NCBI GenBank assembly: GCA_049324415.1
Contig: JBMOOS010000015.1
Span: 12,491-76,490 of the forward strand
Direction: 5' to 3'
Source of the DNA: Pseudomonadota bacterium
GTDB lineage: Bacteria > Pseudomonadota > Alphaproteobacteria > Sphingomonadales > CAKZYD01
DNA length: 64,000 nt
The position numbers were made by a program, and so were the translations under genes. Below, piece after piece: positions 3,258 through 61,535 of this stretch (positions are counted from its first letter, which is position 1; every line of letters starts with the position of its first letter). Below the pieces are notes generated by a model. That model was given only the letters and a program-made list of their open reading frames with translations. It did not search any database and was not told the origin of the DNA.

Positions 3258-4334
3258 TCAAGAAAAACCGGCAGGCCAAGGCATGTCCCGACCAGTCAAT
3301 GCCAACACCTTGAAAAGCTGGCCCATCGCCTGGCCCTCGACAAGGCGGGCGCATGCCGCCTCAATGGCGGCGCGCTGTTGCGGCGTGGCCCCGGCTGTGA
3401 GCCGCTCAGCGCGCTCAGCAATGCCCAAGGCAGCGAGAAAAGCGCCCTGGGCGACCGGGCCGTGCGTCATCGCGCCCCCCTTGCGTGCCGCCAGGGCAAG
3501 GGCGGCGAAGTCCACATGGGCGGTCAGGTCAGCCTCGCCCGGCGCCGCGAAGGGGTCGGCAAAGCCATGGCCCTTGACCGCTTGCAAGGTCTCGCCATGG
3601 CCGGAGGCCGCATGGCCATAGTCGATGATGAGGGCCGCCCCGCCCTGGGTTGCCAGGCGCGCGCCAAGGTCGTGGGCGAGGGCCAGGCCGGCGGGGCAGG
3701 TTTCGAACACCGCGCCTTCGGGGCCTGCGCGCAGGTCCGGGGGAACCAGGGCGCTGAGATCAGCGCTTGCCGTCTCGATGCAGGGGGCGAGGCGTTCCCC
3801 GGTGCCGTCAAGCCCCACCATGCGCTCGCGCCAGGCGCCTCGGTGCCTGACCAATTGGCGCACTGGCAAGGCGTCGAAAAACTCATTGGCGATGACGAAG
3901 GCAAAACCTTGCGGCACATCGGCGAGGCGATCGTGCCACTGGGCGTCCGGCACCAGCCCAGCCTGGCGGGCGCGCAACACCGGGCTGGTCTCGACGAAAT
4001 GGACGCTGGTGGCGGCGTAGAGCCTAGGCAGGAGGGCCAGCGCCCTCAAGGCATCGGCCATCAAGGTGCCGCGCCCCGGGCCCAATTCCACCAGCATGAC
4101 AGTCTCGGGCATGCCGGCGCGTTGCCACAGATCGGCGCACCACAGGCCGATGAGCTCGCCAAACATCTGGCTTATCTCCGGCGCGGTGGTGAAATCGCCT
4201 TGCGCGCCCAGGGGATCGCGGGTCTGGTAATAGCCATGAACGGGGTGGCCGAGGGCTTCCGCCATATAGCGGGCGATGGTGATGGGGCCGCGCACGGCGA
4301 TGCGCTGGATGAGCGTGCGCGCCAGCGGCGTCAT
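3258..4334 (-). CDS. class I SAM-dependent methyltransferase, MidA/NDUFAF7 (DUF185) family
   Basis: Motifs FTTAPEISQMFGELIG, LVELGPGRGTLMAD and ANEFFDALP. ATG 4332-4334 overlaps the lgt stop (ATGA). The 537-aa track ORF runs on into lgt in another frame. Confidence 0.85.
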   Translation of the reverse strand: MTPLARTLIQRIAVRGPITIARYMAEALGHPVHGYYQTRDPLGAQGDFTTAPEISQMFGELIGLWCADLWQRAGMPETVMLVELGPGRGTLMADALRALALLPRLYAATSVHFVETSPVLRARQAGLVPDAQWHDRLADVPQGFAFVIANEFFDALPVRQLVRHRGAWRERMVGLDGTGERLAPCIETASADLSALVPPDLRAGPEGAVFETCPAGLALAHDLGARLATQGGAALIIDYGHAASGHGETLQAVKGHGFADPFAAPGEADLTAHVDFAALALAARKGGAMTHGPVAQGAFLAALGIAERAERLTAGATPQQRAAIEAACARLVEGQAMGQLFKVLALTGRDMPWPAGFS

Positions 4335-28858: not shown

Positions 28859-31103
28859 GCTTCTCCTTGAGCTCCTGTCCGAGGAAATCCCCGCGCGCAT
28901 GCAAGCCCGCGCCTGCGCCGATCTCGAGCGCCTCATCGCCGCGGCGCTCGACGGGGCGGGGCTTGGCCATGACGCCGTCATGGCTTACGCAACGCCGCGC
29001 CGGCTTGCCGTGCATGTCACAGGCCTTCCCCCGGCGCAGGCGGACATCAAGGAGGAGCGCCGCGGCCCCCGCGTCGACGCCGGCCCCCAGGCGATCGCCG
29101 GCTTTTTGAAGTCGGTCGGCCTGCCCCGCGAGGCGCTGGAGGAGCGGGCGGAGAAAAAGGGGCGGTTCCTCTATGCCGTGGTGGAAAGGAAGGGCCGTCC
29201 GACGGCTTTGGTGCTGGCGGATATCCTGCCCGGCGTCATCCGCGCCTTTCCCTGGCCGAAATCGATGCGCTGGGGCGATGGGGCCCTGCGCTGGGTGCGG
29301 CCGCTCACCGCCATCTTGTGCCTGTTCGATGGCGCGGTGGTGCCGTTTGCCCTCGATGGCATGGTCGCCGGCGGGGCGACGCGCGGCCACCGCTTCATGG
29401 CGCCGGGAGTTTTCGAGGTGAAAGACTTCGCCGACTATCGGGCCAAGCTCGAGGAGGCTTATGTCCTTCTCGACCCGGAAGCGCGCAAGGGGCAAATCCG
29501 TAAGGAGGCCAAGGCGCTCGCCGTCGTTTCCAAGCTGGCCTTGTGGGAGGATGAGGCGCTCATCGCCGAGAACGCCGGGCTCACCGAATGGCCGGTGGTG
29601 CTGATGGGCGCGTTCGACTCATCCTTCCTCGAAGTGCCGGGGGAGGTGCTGTCCGCCACCATGGGCAAGAACCAGAAATATTTCACCCTTCTCGACCCGC
29701 AAAGCCGCGGCCTTGCCAACAGATTTCTCTGCGTCGCCAATATCGAGGCGCAAGACGGCGGGCGCGCCATCATCAAGGGCAATGAAAAGGTGCTGGCGGC
29801 GCGCTTGGCCGACGCCCAATATTTCTGGCGCGGGGATTTGAAAATCAAGCTTCAAGACCGTTTGCCCAAGCTCGCAGACATCGTGTTCCACGAAAAGCTC
29901 GGCACCGTCGCCGACAAGGCTGAGCGGATGGCGGCGCTGGCGCGCCATCTTGCGCCCTTTTGCAACGCCGACCCAGACCTTGCCGAGCGGGCAGCGCGCC
30001 TTGCCAAGGCCGACCTGGTGTCCGCCATGGTGGGTGAGTTCCCAGAGCTGCAAGGCATCATGGGCGGCTATTATGCGCGCCATCAGGGGGAGGACGCTGG
30101 GCTCGCCCAAGCGATCGAGGAGCATTATGCGCCCAAGGGACCCGAGGACGCATGCCCGACCGCCCCGCTTTCCCTTGCCGTCGCCCTTGCCGACAAGCTC
30201 GACACCCTGGTTGGCTTTTTCAGCATTGACGAGCGGCCCACCGGCTCGAAGGATCCCTATGCGCTGAGGCGGGCGGCGCTGGGCGTCATCCGGCTGATTG
30301 TCGAGAATAATATTAGAATAGAATTGAATGAATTGATAAAAAAAGTTTCATCCATTATCTATGAGGCTAAAATAGATAATCTTGTTGGTGCCCTTCCTGT
30401 TGAAATAGATGATTTTAATATTGTGAAACAAGCACTCCTTCAGCGAGGAGGTGAGGCAATAGAATGGATATCTAATAATAATATAAGGGATATACGCATT
30501 GCCGGTGTTCCAATTTCTATTAACGAAGATTTGGATTCTGGATTTGAAGAAGCTTTTTTATTTTTTGATTTTGAGCCATCTCATTTAATCGACTTTTTCG
30601 CCGACCGCCTCAAGGTGCAGCAGCGCGACAAGGGGGTGGCGCACGACCACATCGACGCCGTCTTCTCCCTCGGCGGCGAGGACGACCTGGTGCGCCTTCT
30701 CAAAAGGGTCGAAGCGTTAACCGGGTTTCTCAAAACCGAGGACGGGGCCAATCTTCTCACCGGCTACCGCCGCGCCGCCAACATCGTGAGGATTGAGGAA
30801 AAAAAGGACGGCCGCGCTTATGACGGCGCGGTTGACGCGGCGCGGCTGGCGGCGCCCGAGGAAGTGGCGCTGTTCGAAAGGCTGGGCGCGGCGCGCGGCG
30901 CCCTCGAGGCCGCGATGAAGGTCGAGGACTTTCCGCAAGCGATGCGCGCGCTCAGCGCCTTGCGCGGCCCTCTCGATGCGTTTTTCGAGGGCGTCACCGT
31001 CAATGCCGAGGATGCCGGCTTGCGGCAAAACCGGCTCAATCTTCTGTCGCAAATCCGCCGGGTCATGCACCTGGTGGTGGATTTCGCAAAAATCGAAGGC
31101 TAG
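28851..31103 (+). CDS. glyS: glycine--tRNA ligase beta subunit (with atypical AT-rich internal segment)
   Basis: [18 protein letters not shown] start and 8-nt overlap with glyQ. 750 aa, which is long for GlyS as I remember it. Confidence 0.95.
30305..30592 (+). other. in-frame low-GC patch inside glyS
   Basis: Hand count: 95 G+C in 30301-30600 (about 32%), against 42/60 and 43/60 in the flanking 60-nt lines. Codon usage switches to AGA/ATA/AAT/GAT/TTA. Confidence 0.9.
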
Positions 31104-31112
31104 GGGGCAGCC

Positions 31113-33776
31113 ATGGCGAAATGGGTCTACAGCTTCGGCGGCGGCACGGCGCAAGGCCGGGCCGACATGCGCAATCTCCTCGGCGGCAAGGGCGCCAATC
31201 TTGCGGAAATGGCGACGCTTGGCCTGCCGGTGCCGCCGGGTTTCACCATCACCACCGAGGTCTGCACCTATTTCTACGCCCATGACCGGCGTTATCCGCC
31301 CGAATTGGCCGCCGCCGTCGAAGCCGCGGTCCGCCATATCGAGGCGCATGTGGGCGCCGGTTTTGGCGATGCGCGGAACCCGCTGCTTGTCTCGGTACGC
31401 TCGGGGGCGCGGGTGTCGATGCCGGGGATGATGGACACCGTCCTTAACCTCGGCCTTAACGACGAGACCGTGGCGGGCCTTGCCGCCGCCGCCGGCGATG
31501 CGCGCTTTGCCTATGACAGCTATCGCCGCTTCATCCAGATGTATGCCGACGTGGTGTTGGGGGTCGATCACTATCATTTCGAGGAGCTGATCGAGCTTTA
31601 CAAGGAAGACAAGGGCGTCACTCTCGACACCGAGCTTGATGCCGAGGATTGGCAAAGCCTCATCGCCCAGTTCAAGGCCAAGGTTGAGGAAACCCTTGGC
31701 GCGCCTTTCCCGCAGGATGTCAAGGACCAGCTCTGGGGCGCCATCGGCGCGGTCTTTTCCTCCTGGCAGGTGGAGCGGGCCAAGGTCTATCGCCGGCTTC
31801 ACGCCATCCCAGAGGATTGGGGCACGGCGGTCAACGTCCAGGCCATGGTGTTCGGCAATATGGGAGAGACCTCGGCGACCGGGGTCGCCTTCACCCGCGA
31901 CCCCTCGACCGGCGAGAAGGCGATCTACGGCGAGTATCTCATCAACGCCCAGGGCGAGGACGTGGTCGCCGGCATCCGCACCCCGCAATATCTGACCAAG
32001 GCGGCGCGCCTGGCGGCCGGCGCCAAGGCCCCGGCGATGGAAGAGACCATGCCCGAGGTCTTCGCCGAGCTTGTCGAGGTGTTCCAGCGGCTGGAGCGCC
32101 ATTATCGCGACATGCAGGACATCGAGTTCACGGTGCAGAAGGGCACGCTGTGGATGCTGCAGACCCGCGCCGGCAAGCGCACGGCGCGGGCGGCGCTCAA
32201 AGTCGCCGTCGACATGGCGGGCGAGGGGCTGATCAGCCGCGAGGAAGCGGTGTTGCGCATCGACCCGGCGGCGCTCGACCAGCTCCTCCACCCCACCCTC
32301 GACCCCGAGGCGGCGCGCGAGATCATCACCTCCGGCCTGCCCGCTTCGCCCGGCGCCGCTTCGGGTCACGTGGTGTTCGACGCCGACGAGGCGGAGCGGC
32401 AAGCGAAAAACCACCCGGTCATCCTGGTCCGGGTCGAGACCAGCCCCGAGGATATCCACGGCATGCACGCCGCCAAGGGGATCCTCACCAGCCGCGGCGG
32501 CATGACCAGCCATGCCGCGGTGGTCGCCCGCGGCATGGGCCGGCCGTGCGTCTCGGGCGCCGGCGCCCTCAACATCGACATGACGGCGCGCGTCATGCGC
32601 TGCGGCCCCCATGAAGTGAAGGAGGGCGATGTCATCACCATCGATGGCGGCACCGGGCAAGTCATGCTGGGCGCGGTGCCGACCATCGAGCCGGCGCTTT
32701 CCGGCGACTTCGCGACCTTGATGGAATGGGCCGACGCCAAGCGCCGCCTGCGGGTGCGCACCAACGCCGACACCCCGGCCGACTGCCGCACCGCGCGCGG
32801 CTTCGGCGCCGAGGGTATTGGCCTGTGCCGCACCGAGCATATGTTTTTCGACGCCGACCGCATCCTTGCGGTGCGCGAGATGATCCTGGCCGAGGACGAA
32901 ACGGCGCGGCGCAAGGCGCTGGCCAAGCTGTTGCCGGCGCAGCGCCAGGATTTCGTCGAGATTTTCAAGATCATGAAGGGCCTGCCGGTCACCATTCGTC
33001 TGCTTGACCCTCCTTTGCATGAATTCCTGCCCCATGAGGAGGCGGACTTCGCGGCGCTCGCCGCCGTCATCGGCAGCACCGCCGACAAGGTGCGCCAGCG
33101 CGCCAGCGAACTGCATGAGTTCAATCCCATGCTGGGCCATCGCGGCTGCCGCCTGGGCATCACCTATCCGGAAATCTACGAGATGCAGGCGCAGGCGATT
33201 TTCGAGGCGGCGGTCGCCGTCGCCGGGGAAACTGGGGAGAGCGTGACCCCGGAAGTGATGATCCCGCTGGTCGCCACCGCGAGGGAGCTGGAGCTCATCA
33301 AGGCGCGCATCGTCGGTGAGGCGGAAAAAGTCTTCGCCGCCAAGGGGCGCACGCTCGACTATCTGGTGGGCACCATGATCGAATTGCCCCGCGCCGCCTT
33401 GTGCGCTGGCGACATCGCTAAGGAAGCGGCGTTCTTCTCCTTCGGCACCAATGATTTGACGCAGACCACCCTTGGCATCAGCCGCGATGACGCCGGACGT
33501 TTCCTCATGCCTTATGTGGAAAAAGGGATTTATCCCAGAGATCCCTTTGTCTCCATCGACATCGCGGGGGTTGGCGCCCTCATCGAGATCGCGGCGACGC
33601 GCGGCCGCGCCGCCCGCCCCGGCTTGAAGCTCGGCATCTGCGGCGAGCATGGCGGCGACCCCGCCTCCATCGCCTTTTGCGAGACCCTCGGCCTCGACTA
33701 TGTGTCGTGCTCGCCCTATCGGGTGCCGATCGCCCGGCTGGCGGCGGCGCAAGCAGCCTTGAAGCGCGATGACTGA
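31113..33776 (+). CDS. ppdK: pyruvate, phosphate dikinase
   Basis: 887 aa with the phosphohistidine motif GGMTSHAAVVARG and a PEP-utilising C-domain. Confidence 0.96.
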   Translation: MAKWVYSFGGGTAQGRADMRNLLGGKGANLAEMATLGLPVPPGFTITTEVCTYFYAHDRRYPPELAAAVEAAVRHIEAHVGAGFGDARNPLLVSVRSGARVSMPGMMDTVLNLGLNDETVAGLAAAAGDARFAYDSYRRFIQMYADVVLGVDHYHFEELIELYKEDKGVTLDTELDAEDWQSLIAQFKAKVEETLGAPFPQDVKDQLWGAIGAVFSSWQVERAKVYRRLHAIPEDWGTAVNVQAMVFGNMGETSATGVAFTRDPSTGEKAIYGEYLINAQGEDVVAGIRTPQYLTKAARLAAGAKAPAMEETMPEVFAELVEVFQRLERHYRDMQDIEFTVQKGTLWMLQTRAGKRTARAALKVAVDMAGEGLISREEAVLRIDPAALDQLLHPTLDPEAAREIITSGLPASPGAASGHVVFDADEAERQAKNHPVILVRVETSPEDIHGMHAAKGILTSRGGMTSHAAVVARGMGRPCVSGAGALNIDMTARVMRCGPHEVKEGDVITIDGGTGQVMLGAVPTIEPALSGDFATLMEWADAKRRLRVRTNADTPADCRTARGFGAEGIGLCRTEHMFFDADRILAVREMILAEDETARRKALAKLLPAQRQDFVEIFKIMKGLPVTIRLLDPPLHEFLPHEEADFAALAAVIGSTADKVRQRASELHEFNPMLGHRGCRLGITYPEIYEMQAQAIFEAAVAVAGETGESVTPEVMIPLVATARELELIKARIVGEAEKVFAAKGRTLDYLVGTMIELPRAALCAGDIAKEAAFFSFGTNDLTQTTLGISRDDAGRFLMPYVEKGIYPRDPFVSIDIAGVGALIEIAATRGRAARPGLKLGICGEHGGDPASIAFCETLGLDYVSCSPYRVPIARLAAAQAALKRDD

Positions 33777-46068: not shown

Positions 46069-46782
46069 TTAGGCGTTCACCACCTGGCGCTGCTCGGCGG
46101 ACATGTCCTCCGGGTCGCGCAGCACATAGCCACGGCCCCAGACGGTCTCGATATAGTTTTCGCCATTGGTGGCGGAGGCCAGTTTCTTGCGCAATTTACA
46201 GATGAAGACGTCGATGATCTTGAGTTCGGGCTCGTCCATGCCGCCGTAAAGATGATTAAGGAACATCTCCTTGGTAAGGGTCGTGCCCTTGCGCAAGGAC
46301 AACAATTCCAGCATGGCGTATTCCTTGCCGGTGAGGTGAACCCGGCTGCCGTTCACTTCCACCGTCTTGGCGTCCAGGTTGACCGCCAGCTTGCCGGTGC
46401 GGATGACCGACTGCGCATGCCCCTTGGAACGGCGCACGATGGCGTGGATGCGGGCGACCAGTTCCTCCTTGTGAAAGGGCTTGGTGAGATAGTCGTCGGC
46501 GCCGAAGCCCAGCCCCTTGACCTTGTTGTCAAGCTCGACCATGCCGGACAGGATGAGGATCGGCGTGCCGACCTTGGCAAGGCGCAGCTTTTTCAAGACG
46601 TCATAGCCGTGCATGTCGGGCAGGTTGAGATCGAGAAGAATGATGTCATAGTCATAGAGCTTGCCAAGATCGAGGCCTTCCTCGCCAAGATCTGTGGAAT
46701 AAACGTTGAAACCTTCCGAGGAAAGCATCAATTCTATGCTCTTTGAGGTTGACGTGTCGTCTTCGATTAATAATACGCGCAT
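46069..46782 (-). CDS. ctrA: cell-cycle response regulator CtrA
   Basis: MRVLLIEDD...[26 protein letters not shown], and the OmpR-type C-terminus [13 protein letters not shown]...[11 protein letters not shown]. Very CtrA-like throughout. Confidence 0.93.
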
Positions 46783-46845
46783 GTGACTTGCCCCTTGCTC
46801 CTTCCCTTAGCCCCGTTCCGAGCGACGGCGATGGCGCTTTGTCCA

Positions 46846-61042: not shown

Positions 61043-61342
61043 TCATTCGCTCGCCCGATGCCGGTACTGCTGCACCCGCGTCACCCTAAGACCAGGCAAG
61101 CCGTTGCGCTCGATGGCCCGCTGCCAGGAGAGATATTCCTCCATCGATAGGTTGTAGCGCTTGCAGGCGTCTTCCAGGGACAACAGTCCGCCGCGGACGG
61201 CGGCGACCACTTCCGCCTTGCGGCGAATGACCCAACGGCGAGTCTCGGGGGGAGGCAGGTCGTCAAGGGTCAATGGCTCACCAGTGGGCCCTATCACCTG
61301 GTGCGGCATGAAACGTTGGTTTTCTTTCATTGTGCTGCGCAT
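61043..61342 (-). CDS. sciP: SciP-like (DUF1153) small CtrA-inhibitory transcription factor
   Basis: VIGPTGEPLTLDDLPPPETRRWVIRRKAEVVAAVRGGLLSLEDACKRYNLSMEEYLSWQRAI closely matches SciP/DUF1153 as I remember it. Start ambiguous (61342, 61330 or 61309). Confidence 0.8.
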   Translation of the reverse strand: MRSTMKENQRFMPHQVIGPTGEPLTLDDLPPPETRRWVIRRKAEVVAAVRGGLLSLEDACKRYNLSMEEYLSWQRAIERNGLPGLRVTRVQQYRHRASE

Positions 61343-61381
61343 TCCTGAACCATAGTGTGGGCCGACTATAGCCAGCGGCGT

Positions 61382-61396
61382 TTAAAAAAGGTCTAA
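61382..61396. promoter_or_regulatory. near-consensus CtrA box (TTAA-N7-CTAA) upstream of sciP
   Basis: TTAAAAAAGGTCTAA, 40-54 nt upstream of the first possible sciP start. One mismatch to TTAA-N7-TTAA. Confidence 0.25.
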
Positions 61397-61467
61397 GCGG
61401 CTGGGTTAATTGCCAACAAATTTTCGGCTAATGAAATTCAAACGGATATCCCTAATAAGAGGTTGAC

Positions 61468-61535
61468 GGGGCGTGGGGGCGAAAACCCCCCACGCCCCAC
61501 GCTGGCTGAGAGCCTGTCTCGAAACGGGCTCTCAG
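61468..61535 (-). terminator. two tandem strong hairpins downstream of flgE
   Basis: CTGAGAGCC/GGCTCTCAG (61506-61535) and a 12-bp stem GGGGCGTGGGGG/CCCCCACGCCCC (61468-61498). There is no clean T-run, so the terminator call is tentative. Confidence 0.45.

Follow-up and report, generated by a model that had tools for sequence, protein, structure and literature searches.

A low-G+C cassette at a hypervariable hotspot of glyS in Alphaproteobacteria

The central domain of fliC and the target-recognition domains of HsdS in type I restriction systems combine conserved flanks with unrelated centres of lower G+C, which are replaced whole through recombination in the flanks; both flagellin and HsdS face an obvious diversifying agent in the form of immunity, phage or DNA target specificity. 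The mosaic penicillin-binding protein (pbp) alleles of Streptococcus and Neisseria arise by interspecies homologous recombination, and their imported blocks are homologous and alignable. Lineage-specific insertions of aminoacyl-tRNA synthetases, like the inserts of RpoB and RpoC, are fixed within large clades and have the composition of their host. Rickettsia palindromic elements (RPEs) are selfish in-frame insertions that are multicopy, palindromic and recognisably interrelated. Here, we compare with these systems a low-G+C patch in glyS, the gene for the beta subunit of glycyl-tRNA synthetase (GlyRS), within a 64-kb stretch of alphaproteobacterial DNA, hereafter the window. We interpret the patch as a cassette allele that is real and translated, at a hypervariable hotspot of alphaproteobacterial glyS where recombination exchanges cassettes, a reading to which we assign a probability of roughly 0.65.

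The patch, its host gene and its conserved anchors

The glyS product in the window is the GlyRS beta subunit by its profile match, its fold, the adjacent glyQ and an intact acceptor-stem motif (Table 1). Its match to TIGR00211 comes in two stretches that are split at the patch, and Pfam PF02092 and PF05746 are present in GlyS homologues. The AF2 model of the protein has a mean pLDDT of 91.9, and its best Foldseek matches are GlyRS beta chains (7yse_C, E=4e-43, TM 0.83, target-normalised), with further matches to 7lu4, 8ie2 and 7eiv. The adjacent glyQ overlaps the start of glyS by 8 nt, an arrangement typical of an operon. Downstream, ppdK starts 9 nt past glyS, an order kept in relatives (loci L001–L004), so that an accessory nuclease gene has no space there. 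An earlier note on this DNA, made from the sequence alone, had named the gene, quoted the peptide and recognised the conserved GlyS blocks around the patch, and was right on each count.

Table 1. Coordinates in the window of glyS, its neighbours and the parts around the patch
Feature	Position	Strand	Basis
glyQ (GlyRS alpha subunit)	27983..28858	+	ORF; NCBIfam NF006827, 495 bits vs cutoff 369
glyS (GlyRS beta subunit), 750 aa, carries the low-GC patch	28851..31103	+	ORF; TIGR00211, 756 bits vs cutoff 300
5′ conserved anchor, 16 residues (468–483), host-type codons	30252..30299	+	conservation; phmmer mapping to E. coli beta
Start of low-GC tract, 12 residues (484–495), GlyS-homologous helix end	30300..30335	+	conservation; AT-rich codons
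Cassette interior, putative orphan (residues 496–576)	30336..30578	+	no homologue; AF2
End of low-GC tract, SHLID (residues 577–581)	30579..30593	+	conservation; changepoint 30598
3′ conserved anchor FFADRLKV (residues 582–589), host-type composition again	30594..30617	+	conservation; E. coli mapping
ppdK	31113..33776	+	ORF; TIGR01828, 1384 bits

The patch occupies positions 30300–30593 (294 bp, 98 codons) at 31% G+C and a third-position G+C (GC3) of 0.21, against 66% and 0.81 for glyS overall and a GC3 of 0.81 on either side; maximum-likelihood composition changepoints fall at 30297 and 30598. Over 30305–30592, G+C is 31.3%, compared with 64.8% in the window and 65.8% in the remaining glyS. 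The hand count in the earlier note, of 95 G+C in 30301–30600 with 42 and 43 in the flanking 60-nt lines, was reproduced, and this segment lies 7.6 SD under the mean of the other 300-nt intervals (mean 194.9 G+C; minimum elsewhere 145). The patch is the sole 100-nt trough below 40% G+C in the 64 kb. Weaker low-G+C spots of the same stretch are intergenic or lie at gene ends. Composition is atypical at all three codon positions (GC1/2/3 of 0.51/0.27/0.19 vs 0.73/0.44/0.81) and the boundaries are sharp, with GC3 in 10-codon blocks stepping from 1.0 just before the 5′ junction to 0.3 in the first codons of the tract, and from 0.4 to 0.9 in the codons that follow the 3′ junction.

The reading frame is uninterrupted, as had been claimed, with no stops in the glyS frame of the patch and 3–17 in the other five, and it stays open in 0.013% of mononucleotide shuffles (p~1e-4). 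An overlapping gene in another frame or on the other strand was rejected, all other frames being closed. The reported flip in codon usage was likewise confirmed: the patch is dense in codons that this genome uses very rarely, such as ATA, which occurs eight times (against 0.4 per 1000 in neighbouring genes), and TCT, which occurs four times (against 0 per 1000). The patch is a real, translated segment within the gene of an essential tRNA-charging enzyme. The earlier note had also considered an assembly chimera. A piece of some AT-rich genome joined into a GC-rich contig would account for the abrupt change of composition and for the absence of the exact protein and of any close relative from public collections. 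However, both junctions are in frame, and the flanks continue in register into the conserved GlyS residues E485, N486, R489 and L579 at the two tract ends. Chance would seldom leave such a frame open (p~1.3e-4), and dozens of independent assemblies, complete isolate genomes among them, have the low-G+C hotspot at these same codons. A chimera is therefore very unlikely.

By phmmer mapping to the E. coli beta subunit, the 5′ anchor corresponds to Loop H18-19 and helix H19, which in E. coli enter the acceptor-stem major groove of tRNA-Gly (PMC9908026). D468, P469, A471, R473 and R474 are invariant in this anchor, and the acceptor-stem recognition motif D-P-x-A-L-R-R (Loop H18-19/H19) is intact in the window's GlyS. 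In the 3′ anchor, F582, R586 and L587 are invariant, and it holds the residue equivalent to R531 of E. coli, a contact to the backbone of the acceptor stem (PMC9908026). The low-G+C tract itself begins and ends within GlyS-homologous sequence: E485, N486 and R489 are at least 90% conserved in GlyS and belong to a helix end spelt with AAT, ATT, AGA, ATA, GAA and TTG, while L579, conserved to the same degree, is encoded by TTA. In the patch, AF2 predicts long helices at residues 492–513 and 520–542, followed by a low-confidence stretch; block-mean pLDDT in the cassette interior is 48–68, and residues 549–555 fall below 50. As modelled, the cassette most likely stands out from the enzyme surface as a helical module, with a predicted fold of low confidence.

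A 14-nt inverted repeat around the patch (30265–30278 and 30599–30612, 93% complementary) arises from the codons for RRAA and ADRL and is less pronounced in relatives. The 'VENN' at the patch start resembles the CdiA toxin-boundary motif but is simply the conserved GlyS E-N-[GN] helix.

Length variation and allelic exchange at the site

Across 120 homologues, the two conserved blocks lie 34 to 182 aa apart, and the variable stretch measures 16–164 aa over 85 loci, in which it is usually GC3-depleted. The site is a hotspot at which alphaproteobacterial GlyS is hypervariable in both length and sequence, and it lies between two elements that contact the tRNA acceptor stem. That the window's protein is enlarged, as the earlier note proposed, holds true, the stretch exceeding that of E. 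coli by about 60 aa and that of the shortest alphaproteobacterial forms by about 80 aa. The accompanying expectation that orthologues have only a short linker here is wrong for the clade, in which inserts of 80–160 aa are common; nor do all close relatives carry an equally long segment of normal G+C, a case that the note had raised against its own claim.

Pairs of proteins that are 95–98% identical outside the hotspot carry unalignable inserts. This is most extensively documented in Brevundimonas, where 120 GlyS proteins with backbones about 97% identical fall into 56 unrelated cassette types, the commonest of them present in 39 proteins; backbone identity is 0.970 between cassette types (maximum 0.998) and 0.977 within a type. 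No such polymorphism was seen in 5,426 E. coli genomes, and among 112 cassettes none was shared between distant backbones, as lateral spread of a single cassette would produce. Shared cassettes have a dN/dS of 0.07–0.54, compared with 0.07–0.34 for the backbone, which indicates that those common to several species evolve under purifying selection. The cassettes differ wholesale and not via adenine-specific substitutions, and neither the patch nor glyS-like flanks recur elsewhere in the window; a diversity-generating retroelement target, which would call for a template repeat nearby and a reverse transcriptase, was rejected.

In DNA alignments of Brevundimonas, cassette interiors have no homology between alleles, and the breakpoints are strain-specific and lie within conserved coding sequence. 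Because the interiors lack DNA homology, compensated frameshifts were rejected as the source of the unrelated peptides. The clearest pair, L085 and L086, is identical over about 1260 nt (2 mismatches), after which divergence climbs through the non-homologous cassette and stays raised downstream of it; this pattern is a recent import by homologous recombination. Unrelated central segments on near-identical flanks thus occur in relatives of the window's organism, and in Brevundimonas cassettes are demonstrably replaced through homologous recombination whose breakpoints lie in the flanks. We infer the same for the window's lineage from these relatives, since no close relative of its organism was found in any collection, the best being only 66–73% identical. 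A gene encoding DUF559 (Vsr-like nuclease fold) was rejected as a driver of recombination: it lies beside glyS in 10 of 88 sequences, at varying positions, and is absent from the window. This swappable glyS hotspot occurs in many Alphaproteobacteria, apparently without an earlier description.

The 56 types on near-identical backbones, the recombination-driven replacement, the purifying selection within types and the position between tRNA-contacting elements together allow an arms-race reading. Here the cassette would be under negative frequency-dependent (diversifying) selection, and swapping it would evade a phage protein or inter-bacterial toxin that docks on GlyRS beta near the acceptor-stem site. 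We regard this as unlikely, and we know of no antagonist or specificity function for the GlyS segment; if true, glyS would be the first such locus for an aminoacyl-tRNA synthetase.

Origin and composition of the cassettes

Searches with the segment of about 99 aa found no relatives in 1.84 billion representative proteins or 5.8 billion clusters, and the window cassette had no match in JGI metagenomes or IMG/VR. Against phages and plasmids, tblastn with the patch gave only noise at E>=1, and plasmids had no blastn match to a concatenate of 18 low-GC cassettes. The donor lineage that the earlier note had hoped to trace through the 97-aa segment was thus not identified among representatives, clusters, metagenomes, viruses, phages or plasmids. 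By these searches, the window cassette appears to be an orphan, and for this reason the note's suggestion of a lineage-specific inserted module gains support. A phage or plasmid origin was rejected on the tblastn noise, the negative plasmid blastn and the negative IMG/VR scan, an origin from a known domain on the Pfam result (0 of 40 cassettes match), and an internal tandem duplication on the presence of just two tiny, low-scoring repeats. An RNA element was also rejected, with no Rfam match at E<=1 in 29800–31200, none at the gathering threshold window-wide, and no tRNA.

A selfish in-frame element, whether an RPE-like or MITE-like insertion or a degenerate intein, would suit a segment that is foreign in composition and interrupts an essential gene, in frame, where the structure is permissive. 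Yet the patch lacks terminal inverted repeats, a target-site duplication and a hairpin, has no second copy in the 64 kb or in public collections, and the cassettes of relatives are all different and not copies of one element. Inteins have a Hint domain, an N-terminal Cys, Ser or Thr, a C-terminal His-Asn followed by Cys, Ser or Thr, and a length of at least about 130 aa. The 98-aa segment has no Hint or other Pfam match and no splice-junction residues, starts with V-E-N-N, ends with H-L-I-D before F, and is below mini-intein size. We rejected both forms, and a selfish element of any kind is exceedingly improbable.

The AT-richness is a recurrent, persistent property of cassettes at this glyS site. 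Relative to the host gene, hotspot columns have a mean dGC3 of -0.21, against 0.00 in core columns irrespective of conservation and -0.08 in inserts elsewhere, and in 44 of 73 loci the 30-codon stretch with the gene's lowest GC3 overlaps the hotspot, compared with about 13% expected. Cassette GC3 follows host GC3 (slope 0.87, r 0.50), the deficit being mainly in the third position. Brevundimonas cassettes, which are exchanged among congeners of about 67% G+C, have a GC3 of 0.33–0.67 against 0.89 for the backbone, and the commonest type (L016) has 0.60 against 0.90. In the cassette shared by L020 and L033, dS is 2.2, that is, synonymous saturation, and GC3 is 0.44 and 0.32, respectively, with backbone values of 0.70 and 0.64; the low G+C is therefore not simply un-ameliorated foreign DNA. 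Some cassettes have a host-like GC3 (the 109-aa family of Phenylobacterium, L013/L025/L026 and L067/L076). The window's allele is the compositional extreme among cassettes, an outlier with a residual z of -2.7 in which GC1 and GC2 are lowered too.

The earlier note had proposed mosaic recombination with a low-GC donor. In its most specific form, the glyS segment of a bacterium of about 30% G+C, with a long variable region of its own, recently replaced the native segment and has yet to ameliorate. The codon-position values of the patch (0.51/0.27/0.19) are those of coding DNA that has reached equilibrium in a genome of about 30% G+C, the conserved residues at the tract ends are spelt in AT-rich codons as if homologous glyS had arrived with the cassette, the boundaries are sharp, and such imports occur at this site in relatives. 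Against it, the segment has no homologue in any collection searched, relatives keep a low GC3 at synonymous saturation and among congeneric donors, and versions of the same motifs at 31% and 66% G+C would fall short of the nucleotide identity that RecA needs, making RecA-type recombination between such DNAs implausible. As low GC3 persists in relatives, low G+C need not signal recent foreign origin. Of the note's proposal, recombination at this site stands for relatives, whereas the low-GC donor found no counterpart in any collection; a recent import of this kind seems doubtful.

Alternatively, AT-richness itself might be selected, with rare codons or unstructured AT-rich mRNA or DNA favoured at the site whatever the peptide sequence; translation might, for instance, pause once the HD/ATL domain is made and before the anticodon-binding domain follows. 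The GC3 deficit does recur at the same place with unrelated sequences, is on average almost purely synonymous (dGC1 -0.07, dGC2 -0.02, dGC3 -0.23), is kept at synonymous saturation in L020/L033, and coincides in the window with a patch dense in very rare codons. However, lineages whose linkers are short lack the dip (dGC3 about -0.03), GC3 is host-like or higher in several cassettes that are long and conserved, and the amino-acid composition of the window's patch is itself AT-driven, beyond what codon selection explains. The patch also has no promoter-like site, notable terminator-like feature or Rfam match, and no internal sigma-70-like promoter for ppdK was found. Selection for AT-richness is accordingly improbable, both as an account of the patch and as the cause of the low G+C.

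Our preferred account ties composition to the exchange itself. The flanking tRNA-contacting blocks, among the most conserved parts of the protein, act as homology arms, and in relatives whole cassettes swap between alleles by homologous recombination as the backbone stays nearly identical; the window's lineage would do likewise. Each cassette type, being rare, would almost never encounter a homologous partner; it would then escape the GC-biased gene conversion that may hold the remaining gene at a GC3 of about 0.8, and would drift toward AT-biased mutational equilibrium, the window's allele lying furthest along this path, even at amino-acid-changing positions. That recombination is linked to GC in bacteria is documented (PMC4450053). 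Cassette and backbone share expression level, strand, replication context and local mutation environment and still lie far apart in GC3, in one family even at synonymous saturation; this contrast tells against selection on translation and favours a force linked to recombination, namely biased gene conversion. Against the frequency dependence expected under this idea, the commonest Brevundimonas type (39 of 120) is still GC3-depleted, although the data are few. We prefer escape from biased gene conversion as the cause of the low G+C, but hold it tentatively. An AT-rich donor, which the outlying GC1 and GC2 of the window's allele also fit, is a less likely cause.

The glyS hotspot among known variable and inserted segments

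A flagellin-like hypervariable, recombination-exchanged cassette is unexpected in a tRNA synthetase, essential translation enzymes being assumed to be conservative. It affects glyS as a phylogenetic or MLSA marker, as well as annotation and clustering, and the cassette alone pushes glyS alleles below 90% identity. The locus also offers a natural intragenic experiment on what maintains GC-rich bacterial genomes. If the cassette is functional, whether as an interaction surface, in regulation or in evasion of an antagonist, bacterial GlyRS would have a new accessory module; the enzyme already attracts attention as an antibiotic target, since humans lack its architecture.

Like the inserts of aminoacyl-tRNA synthetases and of RpoB and RpoC, the GlyS cassette is an in-frame surface module, and shared cassettes are under purifying selection. 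Unlike those inserts, it comes in 56 types on backbones about 97% identical and has a persistent GC3 deficit. With RPEs it shares in-frame insertion at a surface position in an essential gene of an alphaproteobacterium, but the segment is single-copy (within the 64 kb), non-palindromic and, by the searches above, a probable orphan. As in pbp mosaics, tracts with raised flank divergence lie in an otherwise near-identical gene; in contrast to pbp, the tract core has no detectable homology between alleles. The closest resemblance is to fliC and HsdS, in that glyS cassettes are unrelated, GC-deviant centres between conserved flanks on near-identical alleles, whereas the host protein here is cytoplasmic and essential, a single-copy subunit of an aminoacyl-tRNA synthetase.

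Composition and position of the glyS tract

The predicted structure of the window's GlyS is confident (AlphaFold mean pLDDT 91.9), and the structures it matches best are GlyRS beta chains (7yse_C, E=4e-43). Within the gene, likelihood-based composition changepoints at 30297 and 30598 delimit a tract of 31% G+C, against 65% for the window, with a GC3 of 0.21 against 0.81 on either side. A 300-nt window over this patch falls 7.6 SD under the mean of the remaining window, and no second 100-nt window below 40% G+C was found within the 64 kb. Weaker low-GC spots at 1190-1381, 46621-46790 and 61305-61470 (minimum 150-nt G+C 0.43-0.44) fall between ORFs or at the ends of genes, none within a conserved gene. 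A recount reproduced all the values of the earlier note (95 G+C in 30301-30600; 42 and 43 in the adjacent 60-nt lines), and its description of an uninterrupted frame with switched codon usage also held: the tract is open in the glyS frame, as are only 0.013% of shuffles, with 3-17 stops in each of the other five frames, and is dominated by codons nearly absent from neighbouring genes (ATA x8, TCT x4, also AGA and TTA).

Coordinates of glyS, its neighbours in the window, and DUF559 genes beside glyS at two relative loci
Feature	Location	Strand	Basis
glyQ	27983-28858	+	NCBIfam
glyS	28851-31103	+	750 aa; TIGR00211, 756 bits against a cutoff of 300 (NCBIfam)
ppdK	31113-33776	+	NCBIfam
DUF559 gene	L085:3838-4230	-	PF04480
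DUF559 gene	L087:3954-4307	-	PF04480; PF18741 match weak

By alignment, the tract stands in place of E. coli GlyS residues ~492-524, and its flanking blocks, the second of them FFADRLKV, correspond to beta-chain residues ~476-491 and ~525-532. In the E. coli GlyRS-tRNA complex, Loop H18-19 and the N-terminus of H19 (D474, D476, R481, R482) enter the acceptor-stem major groove, and R531 touches the acceptor-stem backbone (PMC9908026); the tract thus lies between two tRNA-contacting elements that are among the most conserved. Residues E485, N486, R489 and L579, each at least 90% conserved, are encoded inside it (GAG, AAT, AGA, TTA). Since the low-GC tract thus begins within conserved sequence, it is no simple loop insertion of unrelated DNA. 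A 14-nt inverted repeat (30265-30278/30599-30612, 93% complementary) exactly brackets the patch; it is produced by the RRAA and ADRL codons, including an unusual AGG for R473, and is probably coincidental because it is weaker in four relatives. The patch carries no inverted terminal repeats, promoter-like site or RNA family, and the 64 kb hold no second copy of it or of glyS-like flanks, and no Rfam family or tRNA.

Cassette replacement at a hypervariable hotspot

The earlier note had assumed a short linker in orthologues, which is wrong in this clade: the block-to-block distance ranges over 34-182 aa in 120 homologues and is 117 in the window. With DNA obtained for four relatives and 80 species-representative genomes, the variable stretch measures 16-164 aa across 85 sequences. 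Two of the loci with alphaproteobacterial-type glyS carry beta- or gammaproteobacterial labels (L050, JAFKFS010000020.1, 'MAG: Bordetella sp.'; L074, an 'uncultured Rhodanobacteraceae' MAG); outside the hotspot, L050 matches Brevundimonas diminuta (L027) at 97% identity, and both labelled loci are probably mis-binned contigs. In an ENA metagenome contig (L003:2832-3008), a 58-aa ORF without a Pfam match lies between glyQ and glyS, overlapping both gene ends.

The 112 cassettes examined fall into 86 families, of which 74 have a single member; no cassette is common to distant backbones, and none matches that of the window. In some GlyS pairs the sequence outside the hotspot is 95-98% identical while the inserts lack alignable similarity. 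The 120 proteins closest to Brevundimonas vesicularis GlyS have backbones ~97% identical but cassettes of 56 unrelated types (38-154 aa), with a backbone identity of 0.970 (maximum 0.998) across types and 0.977 within a type; proteins named B. vesicularis GlyS vary from 686 to 800 aa. DNA alignment revealed flanks >90% identical and no homology inside the cassettes, which excludes compensated frameshifts as the source of the differing peptides, and strain-specific breakpoints that reach into conserved coding sequence. Two relative loci, L085 and L086, differ by 2 mismatches over the first ~1260 nt of glyS, then by 3, 2 and 12 per 60 nt up to a non-homologous cassette and by 4, 8, 4 and 4 per 60 nt past it, a pattern that marks a recent import, by homologous recombination, from a donor of the same genus. 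Nothing comparable occurs in E. coli, where the homologous 363 nt are kept in 5,426 of 5,426 complete genomes, at an identity of at least 95% in 5,399.

In B. vesicularis ADH2-360 (L021:~3880-3940) and in P-type 28, the flank of the cassette allele, reading FFLIKEMPTGSRDPFAIRRATLGLTNI, alters residues that are near-invariant across Alphaproteobacteria; the changes map to the tRNA acceptor-stem-binding helix, with divergence far above the genus-level background. A small DUF559 gene (PF04480, Vsr-like PD-(D/E)XK nuclease fold) adjoins glyS in 10 of 88 sequences, all Caulobacterales, in varying position and orientation (also downstream in L010, L011, L012, L021 and L022; upstream in L019, L026 and L037). 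It is not needed for the hotspot, being absent from the window, but it is curious that a nuclease gene repeatedly turns up next to such a recombination hotspot.

Shared cassettes evolve at dN/dS 0.07-0.54, against 0.07-0.34 for the backbone, and are therefore constrained protein modules rather than junk spacers; some lineages have a linker of only 16-24 aa, and in principle the module can therefore be dispensed with. None of 40 cassettes matched a Pfam family. The cassette of the window is predicted as two long helices, 492-513 and 520-542, with pLDDT means of 58-68 over 10-residue blocks; residues 549-555 beyond them are poorly predicted (pLDDT below 50).

Origin and base composition of the cassettes

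No relative of the 99-aa segment was found in 5.8 billion protein clusters, in 1.84 billion representatives searched exhaustively with HMMER, in JGI metagenome contigs or IMG/VR, or in GenBank phages or PLSDB plasmids (tblastn, blastn). No GlyS protein identical to the window's is on record, the closest homologues reaching 66-73% identity. We conclude, with a probability of roughly 65%, that the patch is a real, translated, orphan cassette at a hypervariable hotspot that is widespread in alphaproteobacterial glyS and exchanged by recombination. The lineage-specific inserted module proposed earlier is supported, the cassette being an orphan in the collections searched, and an assembly chimera is very unlikely; of mosaic recombination with a low-GC donor, the recombination is borne out in relatives by the strain-specific breakpoints and by L085/L086, whereas no such donor was found.

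The window cassette is the compositional extreme of this hotspot. Stretches of at least 35 aa have on average a GC3 0.20-0.23 lower than the remainder of glyS; the window has the lowest difference (dGC3 -0.60), followed by L027 (-0.50) and L064 (-0.46). Hotspot columns average -0.21, against 0.00 for core alignment columns, at high or poor conservation alike, and -0.08 for inserted columns at other places in glyS. Of all 30-codon windows along the gene, the one with the lowest GC3 overlaps the hotspot in 44 of 73 loci, against ~13% expected. In a minority of cassettes GC3 resembles that of the host (a Phenylobacterium 109-aa family, L013/L025/L026, L067/L076). Sphingomonad and Caulobacter GlyS also carry lineage-specific inserts after window residues ~371-374, ~410-412 and ~652-669 (85-GlyS alignment), where GC3 is less strongly depressed (-0.08 to -0.31), suggesting a general tendency of inserted segments to be AT-shifted in these genomes.

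An un-ameliorated import from an AT-rich donor would fit the GC1/2/3 of the window tract (0.51/0.27/0.19), typical of a ~30% G+C genome, and its AT-coded conserved GlyS residues. It is nevertheless rather unlikely: the collections searched yielded no donor, and recombination between 31% and 66% G+C DNA would be mechanistically implausible. The behaviour of cassettes in general also speaks against a recent foreign origin: cassette GC3 follows host GC3 (slope 0.87), the deficit is mostly synonymous, cassettes exchanged among ~67% G+C Brevundimonas congeners keep a GC3 of 0.33-0.67 where the backbone has 0.89, and the synonymously saturated L020/L033 cassette (dS 2.2) remains at 0.44 and 0.32, with backbones at 0.70 and 0.64, respectively. 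A selective advantage of rare codons or of AT-rich nucleic acid at the domain junction is compatible with low GC recurring at one position, but short-linker lineages and GC-normal cassettes contradict it and make it quite improbable.

In bacteria, genes that show signs of recombination have a higher G+C content, independent of codon selection (PMC4450053), and we tentatively favour escape from such a recombination-linked GC-enriching force as the general cause. A cassette that is one among dozens of unrelated types would rarely be in heteroduplex with a partner and so would drift to an AT-biased mutational equilibrium. This escape explains the persistence of low GC3, the third-position bias, the shoulder of lowered GC3 in neighbouring conserved codons, and the host-like GC3 where cassettes are fixed across species. 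It offers no obvious reason for the depletion that persists in the commonest Brevundimonas type (L016, 0.60 against 0.90). The window cassette is either the most advanced case of this escape or a case of import from an AT-rich donor.

Hypervariability and comparison with known systems

We found no earlier description of this glyS hotspot in the searchable literature. Its hypervariability is compatible with frequency-dependent selection by a putative antagonist, and also with a permissive site that gathers and shuffles neutral-to-mildly-constrained modules. Many unrelated types of cassette sit on near-identical backbones, are replaced by recombination, and are under purifying selection within each type, a pattern reminiscent of fliC or hsdS.
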